From NCBI GenBank assembly GCA_018401705.1, contig JAGYKL010000004.1, positions 37,810 to 101,809 of the forward strand: DNA of 64,000 nt, given 5' to 3'. Position 1 is the stretch's first letter. Each line of letters begins with the position of its first letter. The DNA comes from Bacteroidia bacterium. GTDB lineage: Bacteria > Bacteroidota > Bacteroidia > M30B66. The notes under the pieces were generated by a model, which worked only from the letters and a program-made list of their open reading frames with translations, made no database searches and was not told the DNA's origin. Positions 3,772 to 39,198 of this stretch are shown here, one piece after another. Both the position numbers and the translations under genes were made by a program.

Positions 3772-4752
3772 TTACTTAATAAACGCCAAAACCTGCGAAA
3801 TTTCAATCTCTTCGGCACATTTAAAATGCCCTCTGGGGCAAGCTTTGTAGCCATGTAAGCCACAAGGTCTGCATTCAAGGGGACTTTTTATTTCAACTAC
3901 ATGCGAATTTGTGGACAAAGGACCAAAGCCAAATTGAGGCACAGTACTGCAATAAATGGCTGTAACAGGAGCATCAACAGCAGAACATAAATGCATTGGA
4001 GCAGAGTCATTTACTACATTCATTACCGCTCCTTTCATTAAAGCTGCCGATTGAAGCAGGTCTAATTCACCACAAATATTTTTAACATCAAAATCCTTCA
4101 CTTGTGAGCTAATCTCATTACATAATTGAGTATCAGAAGGAGCTCCTAACAAATAAATCTCGTAGGGCTTATTTAGGTTTCTTATTAAATCAACCCATTT
4201 GTGAGCGGGCCACTGTTTGGTAAACCAAACGGATGCAGGAGCAATGCAGATATAGTCTCTCTCGGGTATGAATTTCGCCTGTGGAGGATAGAGTTTCGGT
4301 TTTGCTTCACCACTAATTCCAAGTGGCTTAATCAGCTCAAGGTTTCTCTCACATTCGTGAACTCCATTTTGAATCTGATGAGCTACCTTATGATTGAAAA
4401 ACCTCGAAAAAGGATTCTTATTAAATCCGATTTTGATTCCAGCTTTTGAGAATGCTGTCAAGAAACCTGAAGCAGCAAACCTTTGGCAATTAATCACTAA
4501 ATCGTATTTCTGCCTTCTAATGGCAATTAAAAGGAAAAATAAATTTCGATATTTTGATTGACTTTTGTTCCACACGAAAGCTCGTTTTATAAAAGGATGC
4601 CCTTTAAATAAGCTTTCGCTTCCTTTTCTCACAACAATATCAATCTCAGCATCCTTATAATTCTGATGAAGAGCTTCCAGTATTGGCGTTGCCAAAATCA
4701 CATCGCCAATAAAGGCTGTTTGTATTAGAAGTATCTTTTTCAATTCGATCAA
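3772..4752 (-). CDS. glycosyltransferase family 9 (ADP-heptose:LPS heptosyltransferase-like)
   Basis: N-terminal ILLIQTAFIGDVILATPILEAL and overall GT9 (RfaF/WaaC) organisation. Size 326 aa. Confidence 0.7.
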   Translation of the reverse strand: MIELKKILLIQTAFIGDVILATPILEALHQNYKDAEIDIVVRKGSESLFKGHPFIKRAFVWNKSQSKYRNLFFLLIAIRRQKYDLVINCQRFAASGFLTAFSKAGIKIGFNKNPFSRFFNHKVAHQIQNGVHECERNLELIKPLGISGEAKPKLYPPQAKFIPERDYICIAPASVWFTKQWPAHKWVDLIRNLNKPYEIYLLGAPSDTQLCNEISSQVKDFDVKNICGELDLLQSAALMKGAVMNVVNDSAPMHLCSAVDAPVTAIYCSTVPQFGFGPLSTNSHVVEIKSPLECRPCGLHGYKACPRGHFKCAEEIEISQVLAFIK

Positions 4753-29851: not shown

Positions 29852-30616
29852 TTATTTTACACCTGTGTACAGGCTCACGATGCCAAGGGTTACGCGTTTC
29901 GCTTTCATTTTGGCAAAACCACAGTCAGTAGCAATCTTCGTAAACGATTGTCCTTCAGGGAATGCTTTAACAGATTCGTATAAATATTTATATGCCGAAT
30001 AATCTTTAGATACCAATTTGCCCCACCAGGGGCAAAAGTATTTGAAATACATATCATACACATGTTTTACGCCAAAAAGTTTAGGTCTTGAAAATTCAAG
30101 AATCACAAGTTTGCCTCCTGGTTTCAAAACACGATTTATTTCAAGAAGGCCTTTTGCAAGATCTTCAAAGTTTCTAACGCCAAATGCTACAGTAACTGCA
30201 TCGAAGGAATTGTCATTGTAAACCATATTTTCTGAATCACCTTTCTCAAGTTTGATAAGATGATTTAGATTTTTCTTTGCCACCTTTTTTCTTCCAATAC
30301 CTAGCATGCCTTCTGAAATGTCCATGCCTATAATTGATGCAGGCTTTAACGAAGCTGCTTCAATGGCAACATCAGCGGTTCCAGTTGCTACATCAAGAAT
30401 AACAGCATTTTTTAAATCCTTGAGTTGCTTCATCATTATCTTCCGCCAGATAACGTCAATTCCTAATGATAGTGACCGGTTTAGAAAGTCGTAATTGTCA
30501 GAAATGTTATCAAACATTTGTTCAACTTGCTCTTTTTTTCCGGATTCGGGGTTTTGATATGGAGTTACATTCATCTTGGATGGAGGAACAGAAACAGAGC
30601 TTAAATGTTCGTTCAT
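29852..30616 (-). CDS. ubiE: demethylmenaquinone/ubiquinone C-methyltransferase
   Basis: N-terminal MFDNISDNYDFLNRSLSLGIDVIWRK. SAM-binding motif ILDVATGTAD. Confidence 0.85.
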   Translation of the reverse strand: MNEHLSSVSVPPSKMNVTPYQNPESGKKEQVEQMFDNISDNYDFLNRSLSLGIDVIWRKIMMKQLKDLKNAVILDVATGTADVAIEAASLKPASIIGMDISEGMLGIGRKKVAKKNLNHLIKLEKGDSENMVYNDNSFDAVTVAFGVRNFEDLAKGLLEINRVLKPGGKLVILEFSRPKLFGVKHVYDMYFKYFCPWWGKLVSKDYSAYKYLYESVKAFPEGQSFTKIATDCGFAKMKAKRVTLGIVSLYTGVK

Positions 30617-31623
30617 TCGTTATTCACTGAGTCTGTAAGTGCAATTAAAGCATTGTCTAATAATTCACCAGCATTCACAGGAACAACGCCAACACGCTCG
30701 CAAACACTAGCTCCAGCTAGATTAGCTATTTGCGCAATACTTTTTAGATCAATGCCCGAAACAAAACACAAAGTTGCTGCACTAATTACTGTGTCACCAG
30801 CTCCAGATACGTCAGCAATGTTAATTTCTTCTGCTGGAATTCTGAAGAATTCTTTGCCATCTGTGATTACTAAGCCGTGCTCAGAAAGCGTAATTAAACT
30901 TATATTATGCATTAACTTAGTTCTCAAATAATTATCGGCATTAATTAAAGAATCATTTGAAGTGGCATCTATATCTTGCTTTAAGCCTTCCTTTATTTCT
31001 TTTAAATTAGGCTTGAATAGATCGACATGCTTGTAACCGGCAAAGTTTTTTGATTTTGGGTCTGCTGCTACCAGTATATTATTCGCCTTGCAAAAGGTAA
31101 CTACCTCATAGATAAGCCTTTCGTCTATCAGGCCTTTATCATAATCTTCAAATATTACAGCATCAGGAGCCTCTTTTTGAAGGATTTTTAAGATTGACTC
31201 CTTTACTTGCACACCTTGTGAGTCGCTCATTGCAGTATCTAACTCTTCGTCAACTCTTAAGAGTTGATGTTTATTCCCAATGATTCTTGTTTTTACTGTT
31301 GTTGGCCTATCAAGCCTTACCATACCAGAAATTGACAAGCCTTCATCAGTGAGCATCTGCATAAAGTCATCGCCATCTCTGTCATTTCCAATGCTTCCTG
31401 CTAAAATCGGTTGTGCACCTAGTGCTTTTATGTTTCTGGCAACGTTAGCTGCACCACCAAGTCTCTTTTCTTTCTTTATCACCTGCACAACAGGCACTGG
31501 TGCTTCAGGGGAAATTCTTTCAACCTTACCAAAGATGTAACTATCAACCATTACATCTCCAATGATTAACACTTTTAAAGCTTTAAAATGCTGGAATATT
31601 CTTTGAAGTTCTTGACGGTTCAT
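30613..31623 (-). CDS. PfkB-family sugar kinase, D-glycero-beta-D-manno-heptose-7-phosphate kinase (RfaE domain I-like)
   Basis: VLIIGDVMVDSYIFGKVERISPEAPVPVV matches the HldE kinase domain. The C-terminal GAGDT motif is present. 336 aa. Confidence 0.7.
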   Translation of the reverse strand: MNRQELQRIFQHFKALKVLIIGDVMVDSYIFGKVERISPEAPVPVVQVIKKEKRLGGAANVARNIKALGAQPILAGSIGNDRDGDDFMQMLTDEGLSISGMVRLDRPTTVKTRIIGNKHQLLRVDEELDTAMSDSQGVQVKESILKILQKEAPDAVIFEDYDKGLIDERLIYEVVTFCKANNILVAADPKSKNFAGYKHVDLFKPNLKEIKEGLKQDIDATSNDSLINADNYLRTKLMHNISLITLSEHGLVITDGKEFFRIPAEEINIADVSGAGDTVISAATLCFVSGIDLKSIAQIANLAGASVCERVGVVPVNAGELLDNALIALTDSVNNE

Positions 31624-32817
31624 TTACTTTAATGCCTCAAGGCCTTTTTTTAAACGTTTAACAGCTTCAATAAGAATGTCTTCTGAAGAAGCATAAGATA
31701 ATCGAATAGAATTCTTGCACCCAAAAGCTTCTCCACCTACAACAGCTAAATGCACAGAATTTAATAGGTACAAACTTAAGTCAATACTAGTGTTTATAAC
31801 TTGATTCTCTGATTTCTTTCCAAGAAAATAACTGATATCAGGAAAGAAATAGAAAGCGCCCTGAGGCTCATTAACTTTAAGTCCTGGTATTTCTCTTAAT
31901 AATTTTAACATAAGATCCCTGCGTTTCTTGAAGCCCTCGACCATAGACTGCACTCGTTCTGGACTTTCATCTAAAGCAGTTACAGCTGCGCGTTGAGTAA
32001 TAGAACAAGTTGCAGAAGTTATTTGTCCTTGAAATTTATCGCAGGCCGCTGCTATCCATTCAGGCGCTCCAATATATCCAAGTCTCCAACCTGTCATAGC
32101 AAAACCTTTTGAAAGTCCGTTAACAGTAATTGTTCTTTCATACATGCCTTCAACTGCGGCAAGGCTAGCATGCTTTCCTGAGAAACGAATTAATTCATAT
32201 ATCTCGTCAGCTATAACAAGCAGATTTTCATGTTTTTTAATTTCTTCACTCAGCAATTGAAGTTCTTCAAAAGAATATACTGAACCGGTTGGGTTGCAAG
32301 GAGAAGAGAAAATCATCAACCTCGTCTTATTAGTTACGTTATCCGCAATTTGCTTTGCTGTTATTTTGAAATCTTGGTCAATTCCAGCATAAACTATTTT
32401 CGGAATTCCTCCGGCAAGTTTGATGATTTCAATATAACTCACCCAATAAGGAGCTGGTAACAATACTTCGTCTCCTGGGTTTATAAGGCTTAAAACAACA
32501 TTGGCAATTGACTGCTTTGCTCCAGTAGAAGCTACAATTTGAGCTGCTGAATACTCTAAATTATTGTCTCTTTTAAATTTATGAGAAATAGCTGATTTTA
32601 ATTCTGGCAAGCCACCAACTGGTGTGTAATGAGAATGATTTTCATCGATTGCAAGCTTTGCCGCATCCTTGATATATTCAGGGGTGTTAAAATCGGGCTC
32701 TCCCAAACTTAAACTAATTACATCATGACCTAATGCTTTTAATTCTCTTGTTTTACGAGCCATTGCGAGGGTTTCAGATTCGCTTAATGCAAGCAGTCGA
32801 TCAGATACACGATTCAT
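31624..32817 (-). CDS. pyridoxal-phosphate-dependent aminotransferase, class I/II
   Basis: PLP-lysine region NGLSKGFAMTGWRLGY. About 397 aa. Confidence 0.8.
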   Translation of the reverse strand: MNRVSDRLLALSESETLAMARKTRELKALGHDVISLSLGEPDFNTPEYIKDAAKLAIDENHSHYTPVGGLPELKSAISHKFKRDNNLEYSAAQIVASTGAKQSIANVVLSLINPGDEVLLPAPYWVSYIEIIKLAGGIPKIVYAGIDQDFKITAKQIADNVTNKTRLMIFSSPCNPTGSVYSFEELQLLSEEIKKHENLLVIADEIYELIRFSGKHASLAAVEGMYERTITVNGLSKGFAMTGWRLGYIGAPEWIAAACDKFQGQITSATCSITQRAAVTALDESPERVQSMVEGFKKRRDLMLKLLREIPGLKVNEPQGAFYFFPDISYFLGKKSENQVINTSIDLSLYLLNSVHLAVVGGEAFGCKNSIRLSYASSEDILIEAVKRLKKGLEALK

Positions 32818-32928
32818 ATTAAGTTTATTTGGGGATGCAAACTAAGTGAATTTTTACATTCAATGGGAATAGCCTAATATTGCAGTCCTTTTAGTGAGCA
32901 TCAATTTTTCCATTAAAAGCCTCTAGAA

Positions 32929-33873
32929 ATGCGTATTTCCGCATCAGTTAGCTCTCTTCATATTCGCGATTTAGCCTCCGCAGTGAATCAACTTGATCAA
33001 GCTGGAGTGAATTTCTATCATTTAGACAGTATAGAAAGCAGGGAGATTTTTGAATTTGCCTCACGATTGAGGAAGCTTACCAAAACTCCATTCGACCTGC
33101 ATTTGATTACTTCAGACCCCGTTAAGTATTGGGATGAAATAAGAGAACATGAAATTCAAGAGGTCACAATTCAATTGGAGACGCTTCATGCTCCTTTTTT
33201 TGTTCCAGCCGATTTGAAGGACAAAGTTGGAGTTGCAGTATTATCGAACAGGCCCGCAGAGTTTTTTAAACTTTACATGGAATCTGCGCCTTCATTGCTT
33301 CTTATGACCACAACACCTGGAATTAGTGGGGGGAAATTTCAACAAGAGCAGTTTGCTAATATAATGAAGTACAGGATTTTGTACCCTCAAGTGCCTATTA
33401 CGGTTGATGGTGGTGTAATTCCAACAGTTTCTGCGGTGCTCTCATTGATGGGAATCTCGCAAATCGTATCTGGCTCGTACTTATTCAAAGGAAGTAGTAT
33501 TCAGGAAACTGTTTCAAATTTAAGAACTTCCGATTTATCAGGCTGGCGCCTGGATGAGGTTATTTTGCCTGAACCTGAAATTTTGCATCAGTTTGAAATT
33601 AGAGTACCTGAATCAATAACATTTATCAATAAGAATGCTGAAATTTCAACTAAGCAAGTTCAGAATAAATGGCTCGATTCTCTTTCTGCAAAGACCGTGA
33701 GTAGTGATTATTATCCGTTTTCTCTGGTTTGGGTACATGAGCAAATTGAGTTATCATCCTTTGCGGACGCAATTAATAAATTAGACTTTTCACCTCATAT
33801 GGCAATAGCTTTGAACGATTTTGATGATGTTACCGGGATTTTTAGCTTGCCAAATTTTATCTCTTCAAAATGA
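32929..33873 (+). CDS. ribulose-phosphate 3-epimerase-fold paralog with altered active-site loop and ~100-aa C-terminal extension
   Basis: Aligns by eye to Rpe: MRISASVSS (cf. MKIAPSILS), YHLD (HVD), DLHLI (DVHLM), MTTTPGISGGKF (MSVNPGFGGQSF) and ITVDGGV (IEVDGGV). The MDGHFVPN segment is absent. Confidence 0.55.
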   Translation: MRISASVSSLHIRDLASAVNQLDQAGVNFYHLDSIESREIFEFASRLRKLTKTPFDLHLITSDPVKYWDEIREHEIQEVTIQLETLHAPFFVPADLKDKVGVAVLSNRPAEFFKLYMESAPSLLLMTTTPGISGGKFQQEQFANIMKYRILYPQVPITVDGGVIPTVSAVLSLMGISQIVSGSYLFKGSSIQETVSNLRTSDLSGWRLDEVILPEPEILHQFEIRVPESITFINKNAEISTKQVQNKWLDSLSAKTVSSDYYPFSLVWVHEQIELSSFADAINKLDFSPHMAIALNDFDDVTGIFSLPNFISSK

Positions 33874-34868
33874 TTGTACACTTATCAAAAGACCTTTCTC
33901 AAAATGACATCCCAGATTTAGCTTTAAGTAATAAAGCTATTTGGTATGAATCAGCCGAATACTATGTATTTGTGCTTCCTTCTTCGATAAAGGAATTGCC
34001 AAATAATTTGCAAAATCATGCCATTAATAACTGGGTTTTACCAGACGATATTCAATTGGCTTCAAGAATCTATCAAGATGATGTTAGAGAGGTTAAATGG
34101 GCGAATTCGATTACTGGTGGTGGAACTAACAACACAGTAATGATTGCCGGACCGTGCTCGGTTGAATCTGAAGAACAATTGGAGCAAACAGCTGAATTGC
34201 TTCTTGAACAAGGAATTAAAAATTTGAGAGCTGGCGCATTCAAGCCAAGAACCTCACCTTATACGTTTCAGGGGCTTGGGATTGAGGGCTTGAAAATGTT
34301 AGATAAGATTCGTTCTAAGTATGGTTTTGGAATTGTTACAGAAGTAAGAGATGCAACTAACGTTGAAGCTATTATTGACTATGCTGATGTTATTCAAATC
34401 GGAGCTAAATCGATGTATGATCACGGTATTTTAAAGAGGTGTGGTAAAGCCGGAAAACCGGTTTTATTGAAAAGAGGGTTTGGTTCAACATTGCAAGAAC
34501 TAGTTCAATGTGCAGAATTTATCCTTTCAGGAGGAAATGAACAGGTGATGCTCTGTGAAAGAGGGATAAGAACCTTTGAAACCAAAACACGATTTACTTT
34601 AGATTTATGCGGAGTTGCTTATTTGAAAGAAAATACGAATCTTCCCGTTATTCTTGACCCATCTCATGCAATGGGATTTGCCTATGGAATTCCCGATTTG
34701 GCTAGGGCTTGCGTAGCAATGGGTGTTGATGGATTACTAATTGAAACACATCCTAATCCTAAAGTTGCTAAATCTGACGCAGCTCAGCAATTAGATTATG
34801 ATGTTTTTAGGCAATTGATGGGAACTTTAAATCCAGTAGCTCAAGCTGTTGGAAGACAAATGGTATGA
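33870..34868 (+). CDS. 3-deoxy-7-phosphoheptulonate (DAHP) synthase, type I-beta with N-terminal ferredoxin-like regulatory domain (Thermotoga type)
   Basis: IAGPCSVESEEQ, GAFKPRTSPYTFQGLG, QIGAKSM, LLKRG, CERGIRTFE, ILDPSHA, HPNP..AKSD. The N-terminal MIVHLSKDLSQNDI parallels the regulatory domain of T. maritima DAHPS. Confidence 0.75.
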   Translation: MIVHLSKDLSQNDIPDLALSNKAIWYESAEYYVFVLPSSIKELPNNLQNHAINNWVLPDDIQLASRIYQDDVREVKWANSITGGGTNNTVMIAGPCSVESEEQLEQTAELLLEQGIKNLRAGAFKPRTSPYTFQGLGIEGLKMLDKIRSKYGFGIVTEVRDATNVEAIIDYADVIQIGAKSMYDHGILKRCGKAGKPVLLKRGFGSTLQELVQCAEFILSGGNEQVMLCERGIRTFETKTRFTLDLCGVAYLKENTNLPVILDPSHAMGFAYGIPDLARACVAMGVDGLLIETHPNPKVAKSDAAQQLDYDVFRQLMGTLNPVAQAVGRQMV

Positions 34869-35554
34869 TTGAATTAATTCGGAATAATCTGAAGTTTTTA
34901 TTGCAAGCAAAAGCTTTTCAAGGAAGAGAACTAAGCAGTGGTTTGCTGGCAAGACTAAATGCTTTGTATAACTCAAAAGCCGATTCTGTAGAAGTTTCAT
35001 TAATTGAAGCACTCGCCGAACAAGGTATTCCGGCTGGTTTGTTTTTTCATAAAAAGTTCGAAGATATAAGTAGCAAGCTCAATAATATCAAGCTTATTGT
35101 GTTTGATGTAGATGGAGTAATGACGGATGCAGGAATGTATTATTCAGAAAGTGGTGATGAGTTTAAACGCTTTCATGCTAGAGATGGAATTGGTATTAAG
35201 CGTTTACATGAGAGTGGCTTTCAGACAGGCGTGATAAGCCATGGAATAAATAAAAATTTGATTGCCAAAAGATGCGAACTATTGGGAATAAAGCATGTTT
35301 ATGCTGGTTCTGAAAATAAGCTATCGGTTCTTACCTTGTGGCTAAATGATTTAAAGCTTGAGCTCTCCCAAGTAGCATTTATTGGTGATGATATTAATGA
35401 TTTGCCATTGCTTGAGAAGGTTGGTTTTTCTGCCTGTCCGGGGGATGCAGTCACTTCTGTTAAATCAAAAGTCGATTTAGTTTTGGAGAAATCAGGTGGT
35501 CATGGTGCAATAAGAGAATTGGTTGATCGCTGCTTTGTTAAAAATTTAGTTTAA
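34865..35554 (+). CDS. HAD-superfamily KdsC-like sugar-acid phosphate phosphatase with ~70-aa N-terminal extension
   Basis: The core [38 protein letters not shown]...[12 protein letters not shown] matches KdsC/KDN-9-P phosphatase family motifs. ATGA overlap with the upstream gene. Confidence 0.6.
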
Positions 35555-35556
35555 AG

Positions 35557-36588
35557 ATGAAAATTGAGAATGATTTAATACTTCGTGCTGCTCGAGGAGA
35601 AAGCGTAGAAAGAACACCTGTTTGGATGATGCGTCAAGCCGGCAGAATTCTTCCTGAATACAGAGAAGTTAGAAGTAAATTAAGTGGTTTTATAGAGCTA
35701 GTAGAAACTCCCGAGTTAGCTGCAGAAGTAACTTTACAGCCAGTTCATCTTTTGGGTGTTGATGCTGCTATTATTTTCTCTGACATCCTTGTGATACCGC
35801 AAGCGATGGGTTGCGCTTATCAAATGATAGAGCAAAAAGGTCCTTGGTTCGAAAATACTATCCGGTCGCAGGCCGACTTAAAGTCACTACATATTGCTGA
35901 TCCTGCTTCAGATCTTGCATTCGTAACTGATGCAATTCGTATAGCAAAGAAAGAGTTGAATAATCGGGTCCCACTTATTGGATTTGCGGGTGCTCCTTGG
36001 ACAATTATGGCTTATATGACAGAAGGTTCAGGCTCAAAAACCTTTTCTGTAGCGCGAAAAATACTTTATACAGAACCAGCTTTTGCTCATAAGCTATTAG
36101 GTATGATAACTGAAAGTACCATCGCATATTTGAAAGCTCAAGTTGAAGCAGGAGCAGATATGTTACAGATATTTGATTCCTGGGCTGGCATTCTTTCTCC
36201 AGCACTTTACGAAGAGTTCTCTCTACCGTATATCAAGCAAATCTGCGAGGCGATTGACGAAGTTCCTGTAACTGTTTTTGCTAAAGGGGCATTTTTTGCT
36301 CGTGAATTATTAGGGAAATTGCCATGTAGAACAATTGGACTAGACTGGAATATGGATATTTTAGAATCTCGAAAATTGCTTGGTCCTGATAAAACTCTTC
36401 AGGGTAATCTTGATCCTTGCTTACTTTATGCAGATCATGAGACAATTAGAAATTCTACTATTGAGATGCTAAAAGCCTTTGGTCCAAATAAGCATATTGC
36501 TAATTTGGGTCATGGTGTTTATCCTGATACAGATCCTGATTCTGTGCGTGTATTTATTGAAACTGTTAAGACATATCGTCATAGTTAA
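35557..36588 (+). CDS. hemE: uroporphyrinogen decarboxylase
   Basis: The signature [10 protein letters not shown] near the N-terminus. About 343 aa. Confidence 0.9.
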
Positions 36589-39136: not shown

Positions 39137-39161
39137 CTGTAAGCAGAAGATATTAGAAACA

Positions 39162-39198
39162 AAAAGGGGATTCATTTATTTTGAATCCCCTTTTTTAT
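39162..39198. terminator. bidirectional rho-independent terminator
   Basis: aaaaggggattca / loop / tgaatcccctttttt lies between the convergent pyrG and pckA. Confidence 0.65.

Follow-up and report, generated by a model that had tools for sequence, protein, structure and literature searches.

The window analyzed here is a 64,000-nt stretch of the genome of a Bacteroidia bacterium (GCA_018401705.1, contig JAGYKL010000004.1, positions 37,810 to 101,809 of the forward strand), within which three consecutive genes, termed g1, g2, and g3, form a compact cassette (Table 1). Both the g1/g2 and the g2/g3 junctions are ATGA stop/start overlaps, as read from the sequence, and hemE begins 2 bp further on, in exact agreement with an earlier, sequence-only reading of this DNA that had described the coupling of the three genes. 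In the window lineage, an aspartate/aromatic-type aminotransferase gene (Pfam/NCBIfam) is divergently adjacent to g1. The intergenic region between them is presumed to contain the promoter of the cassette; we found no Rfam element in it, and a sigma-70 scan, which is ill suited to Bacteroidota, identified no promoter there. Annotation pipelines label g1 "ribulose-phosphate 3-epimerase," g2 "DAHP synthase" or sometimes "bifunctional DAHPS/chorismate mutase," and g3 "KDO 8-P phosphatase."

Table 1. Genes, protein domains, and flanking features of the cassette, in window coordinates
Feature	Positions	Strand	Description	Basis
Presumed promoter region of the cassette	32818-32928	no strand	111 bp separating g1 from the divergently transcribed aminotransferase gene (minus strand)	ORF layout
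g1	32929-33873	+	314 aa	
g1 residues 1-204	32929-33540	+	Rpe-fold (beta/alpha)8 barrel	Pfam, NCBIfam, PDB alignments, AlphaFold/Foldseek
g1 residues ~205-314	33541-33873	+	Decayed, shortened CBS pair	Homology to the intact CBS of distant family members
g2	33870-34868	+	332 aa	
g2 residues 1-86	33870-34127	+	N-terminal ferredoxin-like (beta-alpha-beta-beta-alpha-beta) domain and linker	AlphaFold secondary structure, Foldseek 1RZM/1VR6
g2 residues 87-332	34128-34868	+	DAHPS-Ibeta-type PEP-aldol barrel	NCBIfam, PDB and ortholog alignments
g3	34865-35554	+	229 aa	
g3 residues 1-73	34865-35083	+	Putative decayed XRE/Cro-type helix-turn-helix domain	Ortholog alignment and profile
g3 residues 74-229	35084-35554	+	C0-type HAD phosphatase, KdsC/YrbI subfamily	NCBIfam, PDB scores, motifs
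hemE	35557-36588		2-bp gap after g3	

We looked into the relative positioning of the three genes in 80 species-representative genomes or loci, a locus being usable where its contig continues. The g2 gene was located directly 3' of g1 in 72/72 usable loci (48 of them with the identical 4-nt overlap), and a g3-type HAD gene came next in 66/70. These loci belong to Bacteroidota, Gammaproteobacteria, one alphaproteobacterium, and Paenibacillus; their flanks are unrelated, and no other gene family was common to the flanks across lineages. With such co-linearity, the arrangement is far beyond chance, and the synteny comparison proposed in the earlier reading thus yielded a near-universal gene order across phyla. 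The link to hemE fared differently: the adjacency is real in the window, but it is lineage-specific and irrelevant to the cassette. A natural fusion of g2 and g3 (protein P0122) is encoded on two independent contigs, and in three Cyclobacteriaceae loci a non-CMP-type nucleotidyltransferase replaces the phosphatase. The distribution of the cassette is sporadic (319 of 185,579 species).

We then compared g1 with enzymes of the Rpe fold. Its barrel matches Pfam Ribul_P_3_epim with 68.7 bits, and the AlphaFold model (pLDDT 93) finds only Rpe structures as its best Foldseek matches in the PDB (2FLI, 1H1Y, and 3OVQ; TM of 0.74 to 0.77 on target length). Rpe is defined by two histidines and two aspartates, together with three methionines that form a sulfur cushion around the enediolate (PMC9978339). 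The former are present in g1 as H31, D33, H58, and D160, which align with the Rpe metal and acid-base residues in PDB alignments and are invariant in 63 g1-family members, and the phosphate-binding loops PGxSGG, VDGG, and GS are likewise retained. In contrast, identity to Rpe is 20 to 26%, a 6-residue deletion shortens the beta2-alpha2 loop, with SIESREIF where Rpe has MDGHFVPN, and a single methionine of the cushion is kept (M126); of the other two positions, one varies within the family, being I35 in the window, and one is I60. This is the barrel that the sequence-only reading had described, with its metal ligands but without the MDGHFVPN loop. Profile and active-site comparisons of the kind it had suggested place g1 far under the equivalog cutoffs of both Rpe (TIGR01163, 69 bits versus 212.6) and AlsE (NF007266, 45 bits versus 271; NCBIfam). 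We argue against an assignment of g1 as a standard Rpe on the basis of this score, the lost MDGxFVPN loop, and the coexistence of a textbook Rpe 4 kb from the g1 paralog in locus L076.

The more distant homologs of g1 carry an intact CBS pair (PF00571) in place of its C-terminal extension of ∼110 aa, and hhalign relates the group with the short extension to the long, CBS-containing group (probability 87%, E 3.9e-6). Searched against the PDB, the CBS profile of the g1 family matched API 4O9K best (7e-17), with 3FNA and 3K2V ranked 4 and 5, and residues 204 to 325 of E. coli KdsD align with it end to end (48.6 bits). Judging from these profiles, the closest counterpart of the family's CBS pair is the one in the arabinose-5-phosphate isomerase KdsD/KpsF; in the window copy the pair is decayed. 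The SIS domain is absent from g1 by Pfam and Foldseek, the catalytic domain being the Rpe-fold barrel. The extension that had been taken as a hint of a changed substrate does exist, but it is a decayed CBS pair and not a novel substrate-binding element.

The g2 protein scores above the curated DAHPS-Ibeta cutoffs of NCBIfam (NF006421, 352.5 versus 335; TIGR01361, 310.7 versus 267.75), whereas KDO8PS models give just 127 to 129 bits. Its N-terminal domain had no match by sequence or profile search; the AlphaFold model, however, aligns full-length to the Thermotoga maritima DAHPS 1RZM (TMq of 0.84 over 346 columns, versus 0.73 for barrel-only DAHPS), which agrees with the earlier description of a DAHPS I-beta with an N-terminal regulatory domain. 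In T. maritima DAHPS, this domain senses aromatic amino acids; the two regulatory domains are unrelated in sequence at the profile level. Like 1RZM, g2 has the metal site (C96, H266, E292, and D303) and the K125-P-R-T-S129 motif, both invariant among g2 orthologs, as well as most PEP-binding residues, with KRG and ERGIRTFE intact and the E4P-binding Arg/Thr and metal Asp retained. The alignment with the DAHPS 1VS1 and 1ZCO is nearly gap-free over 233 to 239 residues, whereas KDO8PS requires ∼12 extra residues. We propose that the acceptor of g2 is of tetrose-phosphate size, because KPRTS is intact, the loops have DAHPS lengths, and the E4P residues are kept.

Two signatures set the g2 clade apart from other DAHPS: GAK(A/S)MYD where GARNMQN is usual and, in the beta8 loop, SHAMGYAYG where SHxxG(R/K)R is usual. 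The first covers the position at which the G-[AS]-R motif has its Arg for PEP binding, a residue described as completely conserved in DAHPS (PMC6362186, which also gives the other residue roles). This position is Lys180 in g2 and Lys in 20/20 trio-linked orthologs; among 150 DAHPS representatives, 148 have a residue at the position, Arg in 137 cases and Lys in 11.

The HAD domain of g3 contains the motifs DVDGV and GDDxND and passes the cutoff of the KdsC/YrbI subfamily (TIGR01670, 145.7 versus 106.95), yet it stays below those of the KdsC equivalog (NF007019, 150.5 versus 208) and the KDN9P phosphatase equivalog (NF058599, 148.6 versus 180), and its PDB scores are equal for KdsC and BT1713. 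After motif II, g3 has the loop ISHGIN, one residue longer than the Gly-Arg loop of KdsC and missing its Arg. Throughout the g3 clade this loop reads [IL]S[HSN]G, with neither the KdsC Arg nor the KDN9PP Glu; the pair Glu56/Lys67 presumably determines specificity in the BT1713-type KDN9P phosphatase, and an Ile and a Leu of g3 align to the two positions altered in the BT1713 specificity-mutant entries 4HGQ and 4HGR. On these sequence features, g3 is a paralog that belongs neither with KdsC nor with the KDN9P phosphatase. Membership of the KdsC/KDN9P-phosphatase family with ∼70 extra N-terminal amino acids had been claimed before, and the extension proved to be 73 aa long. It matches Pfam HTH_3 (PF01381) in 8 of 18 g3 orthologs (best 1.6e-12), though not in the window copy alone, and its profile retrieves XRE repressors from the PDB, namely, 3OP9 (8.6e-9), CylR2, SinR, P22 C2, and 434. 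The extension thus appears to be a decayed XRE HTH, recognizable in the orthologs rather than in the window copy alone.

Evaluation of the genomic neighborhoods revealed links to surface-glycan genes in several lineages. The kdsB gene adjoins the trio in five gammaproteobacterial species; in Thiohalophilus the operon order is g1-g2-g3-GT9-kdsB, and a Halorhodospira-like locus combines the trio with kdsB, GT9, a sulfotransferase, and GT2. In locus L005, the trio abuts kdsB-kdsC-lptCAB-rpoN, in the slot that kdsD occupies in E. coli, and a genuine KdsC (222 versus a cutoff of 208) lies 1 kb from the trio HAD, which scores 128 on the KdsC model. In Paenibacillus, the pair is found with a divergent CTP_transf_3 gene inside a FliS/FliT/Maf flagellin-glycosylation island. 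Against a glycan role, most Bacteroidota loci have no adjacent cytidylyltransferase or glycosyltransferase gene, and the cassette of the window lineage sits among the housekeeping genes hemE, pyrG, and pckA. None of the Pfam-annotated trio loci contains a shikimate-pathway gene, and neither the fetched loci nor the window contains a canonical kdsA or kdsD.

The trio is a cassette conserved in more than 70 bacterial species and most likely directed at the synthesis of an undescribed Kdo-like cell-surface sugar acid. We consider it reasonably probable that it forms a parallel, KdsD/KdsA/KdsC-like route to a free 3-deoxy-2-ulosonic acid for surface glycans, with substrates, a product, and a destination that we infer. 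In such a route, g1, whose metal-dependent enediolate barrel is of Rpe type where KdsD has a SIS domain, would convert a common acyclic sugar phosphate into an aldose phosphate, g2 would condense the latter with PEP, in a pocket of tetrose-phosphate size, into a 3-deoxy-2-ulosonate phosphate, and g3 would be the dedicated HAD phosphatase that releases the free acid. The acid would then be activated with a nucleotide through a cytidylyltransferase (KdsB or a different one), the gene for which lies near the trio in some lineages, and be transferred to the LPS core in Gram-negatives or to a flagellin glycan in Paenibacillus. The substrate of g1 should be phosphorylated, since the phosphate loops of Rpe are kept, and g1 presumably acts before the condensation, because the condensation product has a CH2 beside the carbonyl and is unsuited to Rpe-type chemistry. 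The product is probably an analogue of Kdo with seven carbons, namely, a 3-deoxy-heptulosonic acid, and neither the DAHP of the shikimate pathway nor Kdo. We know of no glycan with such an acid from any trio-bearing organism. The sequence-only reading had already considered a dephosphorylated 3-deoxy-ulosonic acid, with an acceptor supplied by the Rpe-like enzyme; the synteny, the fusion, the coexistence with KdsC, the cytidylyltransferase and glycan neighbors, and the separate Rpe now speak for it, the substrates being our proposal.

The Kdo pathway (KdsD-KdsA-KdsC-KdsB) has the same order of sugar-phosphate interconversion, PEP condensation on a barrel of the class I-beta family, and dephosphorylation by a C0 HAD (YrbI) phosphatase; its first enzyme also ends in an API-type CBS pair, and the gammaproteobacterial trio is linked to kdsB, kdsC, and lptCAB. 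The trio differs in each enzyme, as KdsD is built on a SIS domain and not on a metal barrel, g2 is of DAHPS type (KPRTS, short loops, ferredoxin-like domain) and not of KdsA type, and g3 is a paralog that coexists with true KdsC. The KDN pathway of Bacteroides thetaiotaomicron (BT1714 synthase and BT1713 phosphatase) is likewise an accessory ulosonic-acid route of Bacteroidota, and its synthase, too, has a YrbI-family phosphatase dedicated to it. KDN9P synthase, however, is a NeuB-family enzyme that uses mannose-6-P, unlike the DAHPS-family g2, and g3 is hydrophobic at the positions mutated in 4HGQ/4HGR, besides being under the KDN9PP cutoff.

The one-to-one parallel with KdsD/KdsA/KdsC, including the KdsD-like CBS, raises the question of whether the trio is a nonorthologous route to ordinary Kdo, in which g1 makes arabinose-5-phosphate (by 1,2-isomerization of Ru5P or C2 epimerization of ribose-5-P), g2 is a KDO8P synthase, and g3 is a KDO8P phosphatase. 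The adjacent kdsB, the kdsD slot in L005, and the absence of canonical kdsA and kdsD from the fetched loci and the window would fit such a route, and archaeal DAHPS near g2 reportedly accept five-carbon sugar phosphates. We nevertheless regard it as unlikely. The g2 protein has KPRTS and loops of DAHPS length, where a KDO8PS would have KANRS and longer loops, and scores far higher as a DAHPS (352 versus 129 bits). Because the trio HAD is retained, or even fused to the synthase, alongside a genuine KdsC, the product is apparently not one that KdsC handles. The distribution of the trio is sporadic, and cultured members of trio-bearing families use the normal Kdo pathway. Furthermore, Rpe chemistry is an epimerization in which the carbon that reacts is three carbons away from the phosphate, a geometry that would fit a tetrose phosphate but not a pentose phosphate at C2.

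A role of g2 as a feedback-regulated shikimate DAHP synthase, with g1 (a spare pentose-phosphate epimerase) and g3 (an ordinary KdsC) as unrelated neighbors, appears very improbable to us, even though g2 exceeds the curated DAHPS cutoffs, keeps all metal and E4P residues and a Thermotoga-type regulatory domain, and is ∼50 to 57% identical to genuine archaeal DAHPS; the pipeline annotations and the aminotransferase gene next to the cassette would also agree with this role. Unlike that of Thermotoga-type DAHPS, the g2 gene comes with genes for an Rpe-CBS protein and a phosphatase, mostly under translational coupling and across phyla with unrelated flanks, and never with shikimate genes in the examined loci. 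The synthase-phosphatase fusion, the replaced PEP-binding Arg, and the presence of the pair in a flagellin-glycosylation island and of the trio in LPS operons also argue against it, and dephosphorylation of DAHP would block dehydroquinate synthase, for which the phosphate is the leaving group. Alternatively, the free 3-deoxy-ulosonic acid might serve outside glycans, as a soluble metabolite, osmolyte, signal, or precursor of a secondary product. The scarcity of adjacent nucleotidyltransferase and glycosyltransferase genes in Bacteroidota, the HTH on many phosphatase copies, which may point to metabolite-responsive autoregulation, and the non-CMP-type nucleotidyltransferase of Cyclobacteriaceae would suit such a use. 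We judge it improbable, as the informative neighbors, where present, are LPS or flagellin-glycan genes, and the other known settings of KdsC-family phosphatases and KdsD-like CBS modules are glycan-precursor pathways.

Within the proposed route to a surface sugar acid, we tentatively suggest one set of substrates, although it falls well short of an even chance of being right and is best called doubtful: g1 would be an erythrose-4-phosphate 2-epimerase, g2 would join the resulting D-threose-4-phosphate to PEP to give 3-deoxy-D-lyxo-heptulosonate 7-phosphate, and g3 would dephosphorylate the latter. E4P is Ru5P without C1, so that its C1 aldehyde, C2 hydroxyl, and phosphate match the register of C2, C3, and the phosphate of Ru5P, and the lost beta2-alpha2 loop would reflect the absent hydroxymethyl group. 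Activation of the KdsB type would be explained as well, because the acid matches Kdo exactly in ring stereochemistry and is one carbon shorter. Dha is found in LPS cores of Rhizobiaceae, scales of prasinophytes, and rhamnogalacturonan-II of plants, and the literature still records no known enzymes for its biosynthesis and no known nucleotide form (PMC3355719; PMC12168206).

If the proposal is correct, the cassette is a dedicated surface sugar-acid pathway in several hundred species, mostly uncultured Bacteroidota, and metabolic reconstructions are wrong where they rely on these genes for the entry enzyme of the shikimate pathway, for an epimerase of pentose phosphates, or for a phosphatase of the Kdo pathway. 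It would also provide a concrete candidate route to seven-carbon Kdo analogues, including the long-unknown biosynthesis of Dha, and cases of enzyme recruitment, with an Rpe barrel on a KdsD regulatory module, a DAHPS whose PEP site has been retooled, and a phosphatase that acquired an HTH by fusion.

Cultured hosts of these genes are Thiohalophilus thiocyanatoxydans DSM 16326 and Paenibacillus sp. KS-LC4.

The cassette consists of an Rpe-fold paralog (gene 1), a DAHPS-Ibeta-type synthase (gene 2), and a KdsC-like HAD phosphatase (gene 3). Read directly, the sequence contains two ATGA stop/start overlaps, joining gene 1 to gene 2 and gene 2 to gene 3, and a 2-bp gap between gene 3 and hemE, so that the three coupled ORFs and the adjoining hemE described in the sequence-only reading were all borne out. 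Searched against Rfam, the whole 64-kb window gave no match at the gathering threshold and thus contains no tRNAs, rRNAs, or riboswitches from known families; accordingly, this search revealed no known RNA element, riboswitch or otherwise, ahead of the operon. Downstream of the cassette, the single convincing terminator hairpin (39161-39195) lies beyond pyrG. This hairpin separates the converging genes pyrG and pckA, has a perfect 14-bp stem with an A-run on one side and a T-run on the other, and resembles an intrinsic terminator that works in both directions.

Layout of the three-gene cassette and of hemE in the window
Feature	Positions	Strand	Description
gene 1 (g1)	32929-33873	+	ORF, 314 aa
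gene 2 (g2)	33870-34868	+	ORF, 332 aa
gene 3 (g3)	34865-35554	+	ORF, 229 aa
hemE	start 35557	+	directly downstream of g3

We evaluated the conservation of this arrangement by scanning one genome per species, and from the 319 species with a gene 1 relative we analyzed the best 80, covering ±10 kb around each hit. These best 80 were mostly Bacteroidota MAGs, plus Thiohalophilus (including the cultured DSM 16326), a Halorhodospira-like MAG, and Hyphobacterium. Among them, gene 2 directly followed gene 1 in all loci where the contig continues (72/72), with the same 4-nt overlap in 48, and a gene 3-type phosphatase was found within 1.2 kb downstream in 66/70. Synteny across Bacteroidota, proposed earlier as a test of the coupling, is thus conserved. 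Clustering of the neighboring ORFs in the same 80 species revealed no further family shared between lineages, and we rejected hemE, the aminotransferase, and the RfaE-like kinase as members of the system, since they are linked to it solely in the lineage of the window (17-19 loci). The latter two genes (30613-32817, minus strand), a pair conserved next to the cassette in that lineage only, have zero intergenic gap and encode an aspartate-type aminotransferase and an RfaE-domain-I-like PfkB kinase, which scores 316.6 bits against a heptose-7-P kinase cutoff of 345 and has no adenylyltransferase domain. We found no universally co-occurring activating enzyme or glycosyltransferase among the loci: KdsB and GT9 adjoin the trio in gammaproteobacteria alone, CTP_transf_3 is confined to Paenibacillus, and a 301-aa nucleotidyltransferase is confined to three Cyclobacteriaceae. 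In the latter genomes, no phosphatase follows the synthase, and its place is taken by this NTP_transferase-family protein (L060:12083-12988, L083:12068-12973, and L086:12028-12933), followed by a peroxiredoxin.

Gene 1 matches Pfam Ribul_P_3_epim with 68.7 bits, but its scores of 69 bits for the Rpe equivalog and 45 for AlsE lie far under the respective cutoffs of 212.6 and 271. Alignment to solved Rpe proteins showed that the metal/acid-base residues H31, D33, H58, and D160 and the phosphate loops PGxSGG, VDGG, and GS are kept, and none of them varies among 63 family members. Where Rpe has the HxDxMDGxFVPN loop, gene 1 has SIESREIF, with a 6-residue deletion, in agreement with its initial description as an Rpe signature retaining the metal ligands without the MDGHFVPN loop. 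Only one of the three conserved Rpe Met residues, which form a proton-free cushion favoring epimerization (RPE review, PMC9978339), is left. The structures nearest to the AlphaFold model (pLDDT 93) are genuine Rpe structures, with a TM of about 0.75 on the barrel. In one trio-bearing MAG (L076), a textbook Rpe of 219 aa is also encoded, 4 kb from the paralog, so that the housekeeping role does not fall to the latter.

The C-terminal extension of gene 1, estimated earlier at ~100 aa, is present and measures roughly 110 aa. It does not represent a new element; profile-profile comparison related it to a CBS pair. Pfam CBS was found at this position in more distant members of the family, of about 335 aa, and the window-type tail matched this intact CBS pair with 87% probability (E value, 4e-6). 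In a search of all PDB sequences, the profile of the intact pair had its top match in the CBS domains of an arabinose-5-phosphate isomerase (API, KdsD/KpsF; 4O9K, 7e-17), with two further API CBS pairs at ranks four and five, and residues 204-325 of E. coli KdsD aligned with it end to end. By these profile comparisons, gene 1 is an Rpe-type barrel bearing a KdsD/KpsF regulatory module.

Gene 2 scores above the curated DAHPS-Ibeta cutoffs and much lower for KDO8P synthase. It aligns essentially without gaps to the DAHPS of A. pernix and P. furiosus, with the Cys/His/Glu/Asp metal site and the KPRTS motif intact. Its N-terminal 86 residues gave no sequence match, either to PF18152 in 20 orthologs or with a profile against the PDB, and the domain was resolved by structure prediction only. 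The AlphaFold model (pLDDT 91) contains a beta-alpha-beta-beta-alpha-beta unit in this region and aligns over its full length with T. maritima DAHPS (TMq, 0.84 over 346 columns, versus 0.73 for barrel-only enzymes), so that the label of a Thermotoga-type DAHPS with an N-terminal domain holds structurally. We compared gene 2 with 150 DAHPS representatives from a 1.8-billion-protein library. The Arg of the G-[AST]-R-N-M-Q-N loop, described for DAHPS as PEP binding and completely conserved (PMC6362186), occurs in 137 of them; instead, GAK(A/S)MYD stands at this place in every one of the 20 trio-linked orthologs and in 11 near relatives, alongside SHAMGYAYG where DAHPS has SHxxG(R/K)R. The Lys-type synthase representatives are entries from metagenomes only. 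Judged by these motifs, the gene 2 clade is an atypical DAHPS. A Lys in place of the PEP-binding Arg is also seen in five family representatives outside the tight trio clade (P0126, P0128, P0129, P0216, and P0199; G[ST]K[SAC]M[YF]D), which hints at a broader Lys-type subfamily. Two 332-aa homologs (P0279 and P0328) are named [quoted passage not shown] in some NCBI records; they have no chorismate mutase domain, and their N-terminal domain is ferredoxin-like.

The HAD core of gene 3 belongs to the KdsC/YrbI subfamily, falls below the KdsC and KDN9P phosphatase equivalog cutoffs alike, and scores equally against solved KdsC proteins and BT1713, the KDN9P phosphatase of Bacteroides thetaiotaomicron. 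The trio-linked phosphatases have their own loop past motif II, [IL]S[HSN]G, which is one residue longer and contains neither the KdsC Arg nor the BT1713 Glu, which we take to be specificity residues. In addition, we found a 521-aa fusion (P0122) of a trio-type synthase (55% identical to gene 2) and a trio-type phosphatase (47% identical to gene 3) in two independent metagenome contigs (L095:72-1637 and L096:72-1637), whose source is a high-GC organism. These contigs begin 71 nt upstream of the fusion; the upstream ORF, present as an otherwise uninformative stub, likewise ends with an ATGA overlap.

Several neighborhoods connect the cassette with surface glycans. In a gammaproteobacterial MAG (L005), the trio divergently adjoins kdsB, kdsC, lptC, lptA, lptB, and rpoN, in the slot of kdsD in E. 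coli; these neighbors include a genuine kdsB (309 versus 155 bits) and a genuine kdsC (222 versus 208), and the trio HAD reaches a KdsC score of just 128. Thiohalophilus thiocyanatoxydans has an overlapping operon of genes 1 to 3, a GT9 glycosyltransferase gene, and kdsB. The same genes occur in two more Thiohalophilus species and in the Halorhodospira-like MAG, which adds a sulfotransferase and a GT2. The window has a GT9 (heptosyltransferase-family) gene at 3937-4728 (minus strand), whose product is 24% identical to the GT9 of the Thiohalophilus operon. In Paenibacillus sp. KS-LC4 (CP145905.1), the gene 1-gene 2 pair is followed by a divergent CTP_transf_3 cytidylyltransferase, neither KdsB nor PseF, in a flagellin glycosylation island (L002:5254-15773) encoding FliS, FliT, two Maf proteins, a PseB-like dehydratase, and three glycosyltransferases. 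The island also encodes a 578-aa C2185-like protein and an RraA-like (aldolase/decarboxylase family) protein; the pair has no HAD phosphatase gene next to it.

The coupling, the fusion, and these contexts support the original suggestion that the trio may make a dephosphorylated 3-deoxy-ulosonic acid. Both the fusion and the private phosphatase kept beside a real KdsC point to a synthase product other than KDO8P that loses its phosphate. Since gene 1 keeps the Rpe phosphate loops, its substrate is presumably a phosphorylated sugar, and since the condensation product would have a methylene beside its carbonyl, Rpe chemistry should be possible before condensation only. The DAHPS-type pocket speaks for an acceptor of four carbons, and these points together favor a 3-deoxy-heptulosonic acid pathway. 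We propose that the cassette follows the logic of KdsD-KdsA-KdsC with different catalytic parts: gene 1 would act on a phosphorylated sugar, the synthase would condense the four-carbon acceptor, and the product would be dephosphorylated to free 3-deoxy-heptulosonic acid, which would be nucleotide activated for LPS cores or flagellin glycans. We consider this general scheme fairly probable. An alternative route to ordinary Kdo would fit the architecture and the kdsB linkage, but neither the DAHPS-type motifs nor the redundant phosphatase, and we regard it as unlikely. A non-glycan soluble product, in keeping with the fact that no activating enzyme adjoins the cassette in Bacteroidota, seems improbable to us, and a plain shikimate DAHPS with incidental neighbors, at odds with the coupling across phyla, the fusion, and the glycan islands, highly improbable.

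Within the heptulosonic acid scheme, we tentatively suggest that gene 1 might be a C2 epimerase of erythrose-4-phosphate (E4P), yielding threose-4-phosphate and thereby 3-deoxy-D-lyxo-heptulosonate. E4P corresponds to ribulose-5-phosphate minus C1 and could bind in the same register in an Rpe-type site, and DAHPS reportedly accepts threose-4-phosphates, according to the Parker laboratory. The product would be Kdo one carbon shorter and a logical precursor of Dha, whose biosynthesis is still listed as unknown (PMC3355719; PMC12168206). We found no published account of the cassette in the literature on Kdo/API, flagellin glycosylation, DAH7PS and threose-4-phosphate, and KDN9P/KDO8P phosphatases; from its predicted functions, it is a previously undescribed variant of ulosonic acid pathways, hidden by routine annotation.

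Gene 3 was described as a KdsC/KDN9P-family HAD with ~70 extra N-terminal aa, which agrees with its subfamily score and with an extension of 73 aa (34865-35083). Such an extension is found only in Bacteroidia/Bacteroidales forms (e.g., L061:9885-10115 and L054:12000-12230), and elsewhere the phosphatase has 155 to 170 aa. Pfam HTH_3 matched 8/18 orthologous extensions (best E value, 1.6e-12), and their profile matched CylR2, SinR, and the P22 and 434 repressors; by itself, the window extension gave no HTH score. By homology, it is a decayed XRE/Cro-type helix-turn-helix, a domain that is intact in some lineages. The HTH-phosphatase could combine enzyme and repressor in one protein and so autoregulate the operon; alternatively, the extension could be a degenerate structural domain as in HEPD/MPnS, also among the profile matches.
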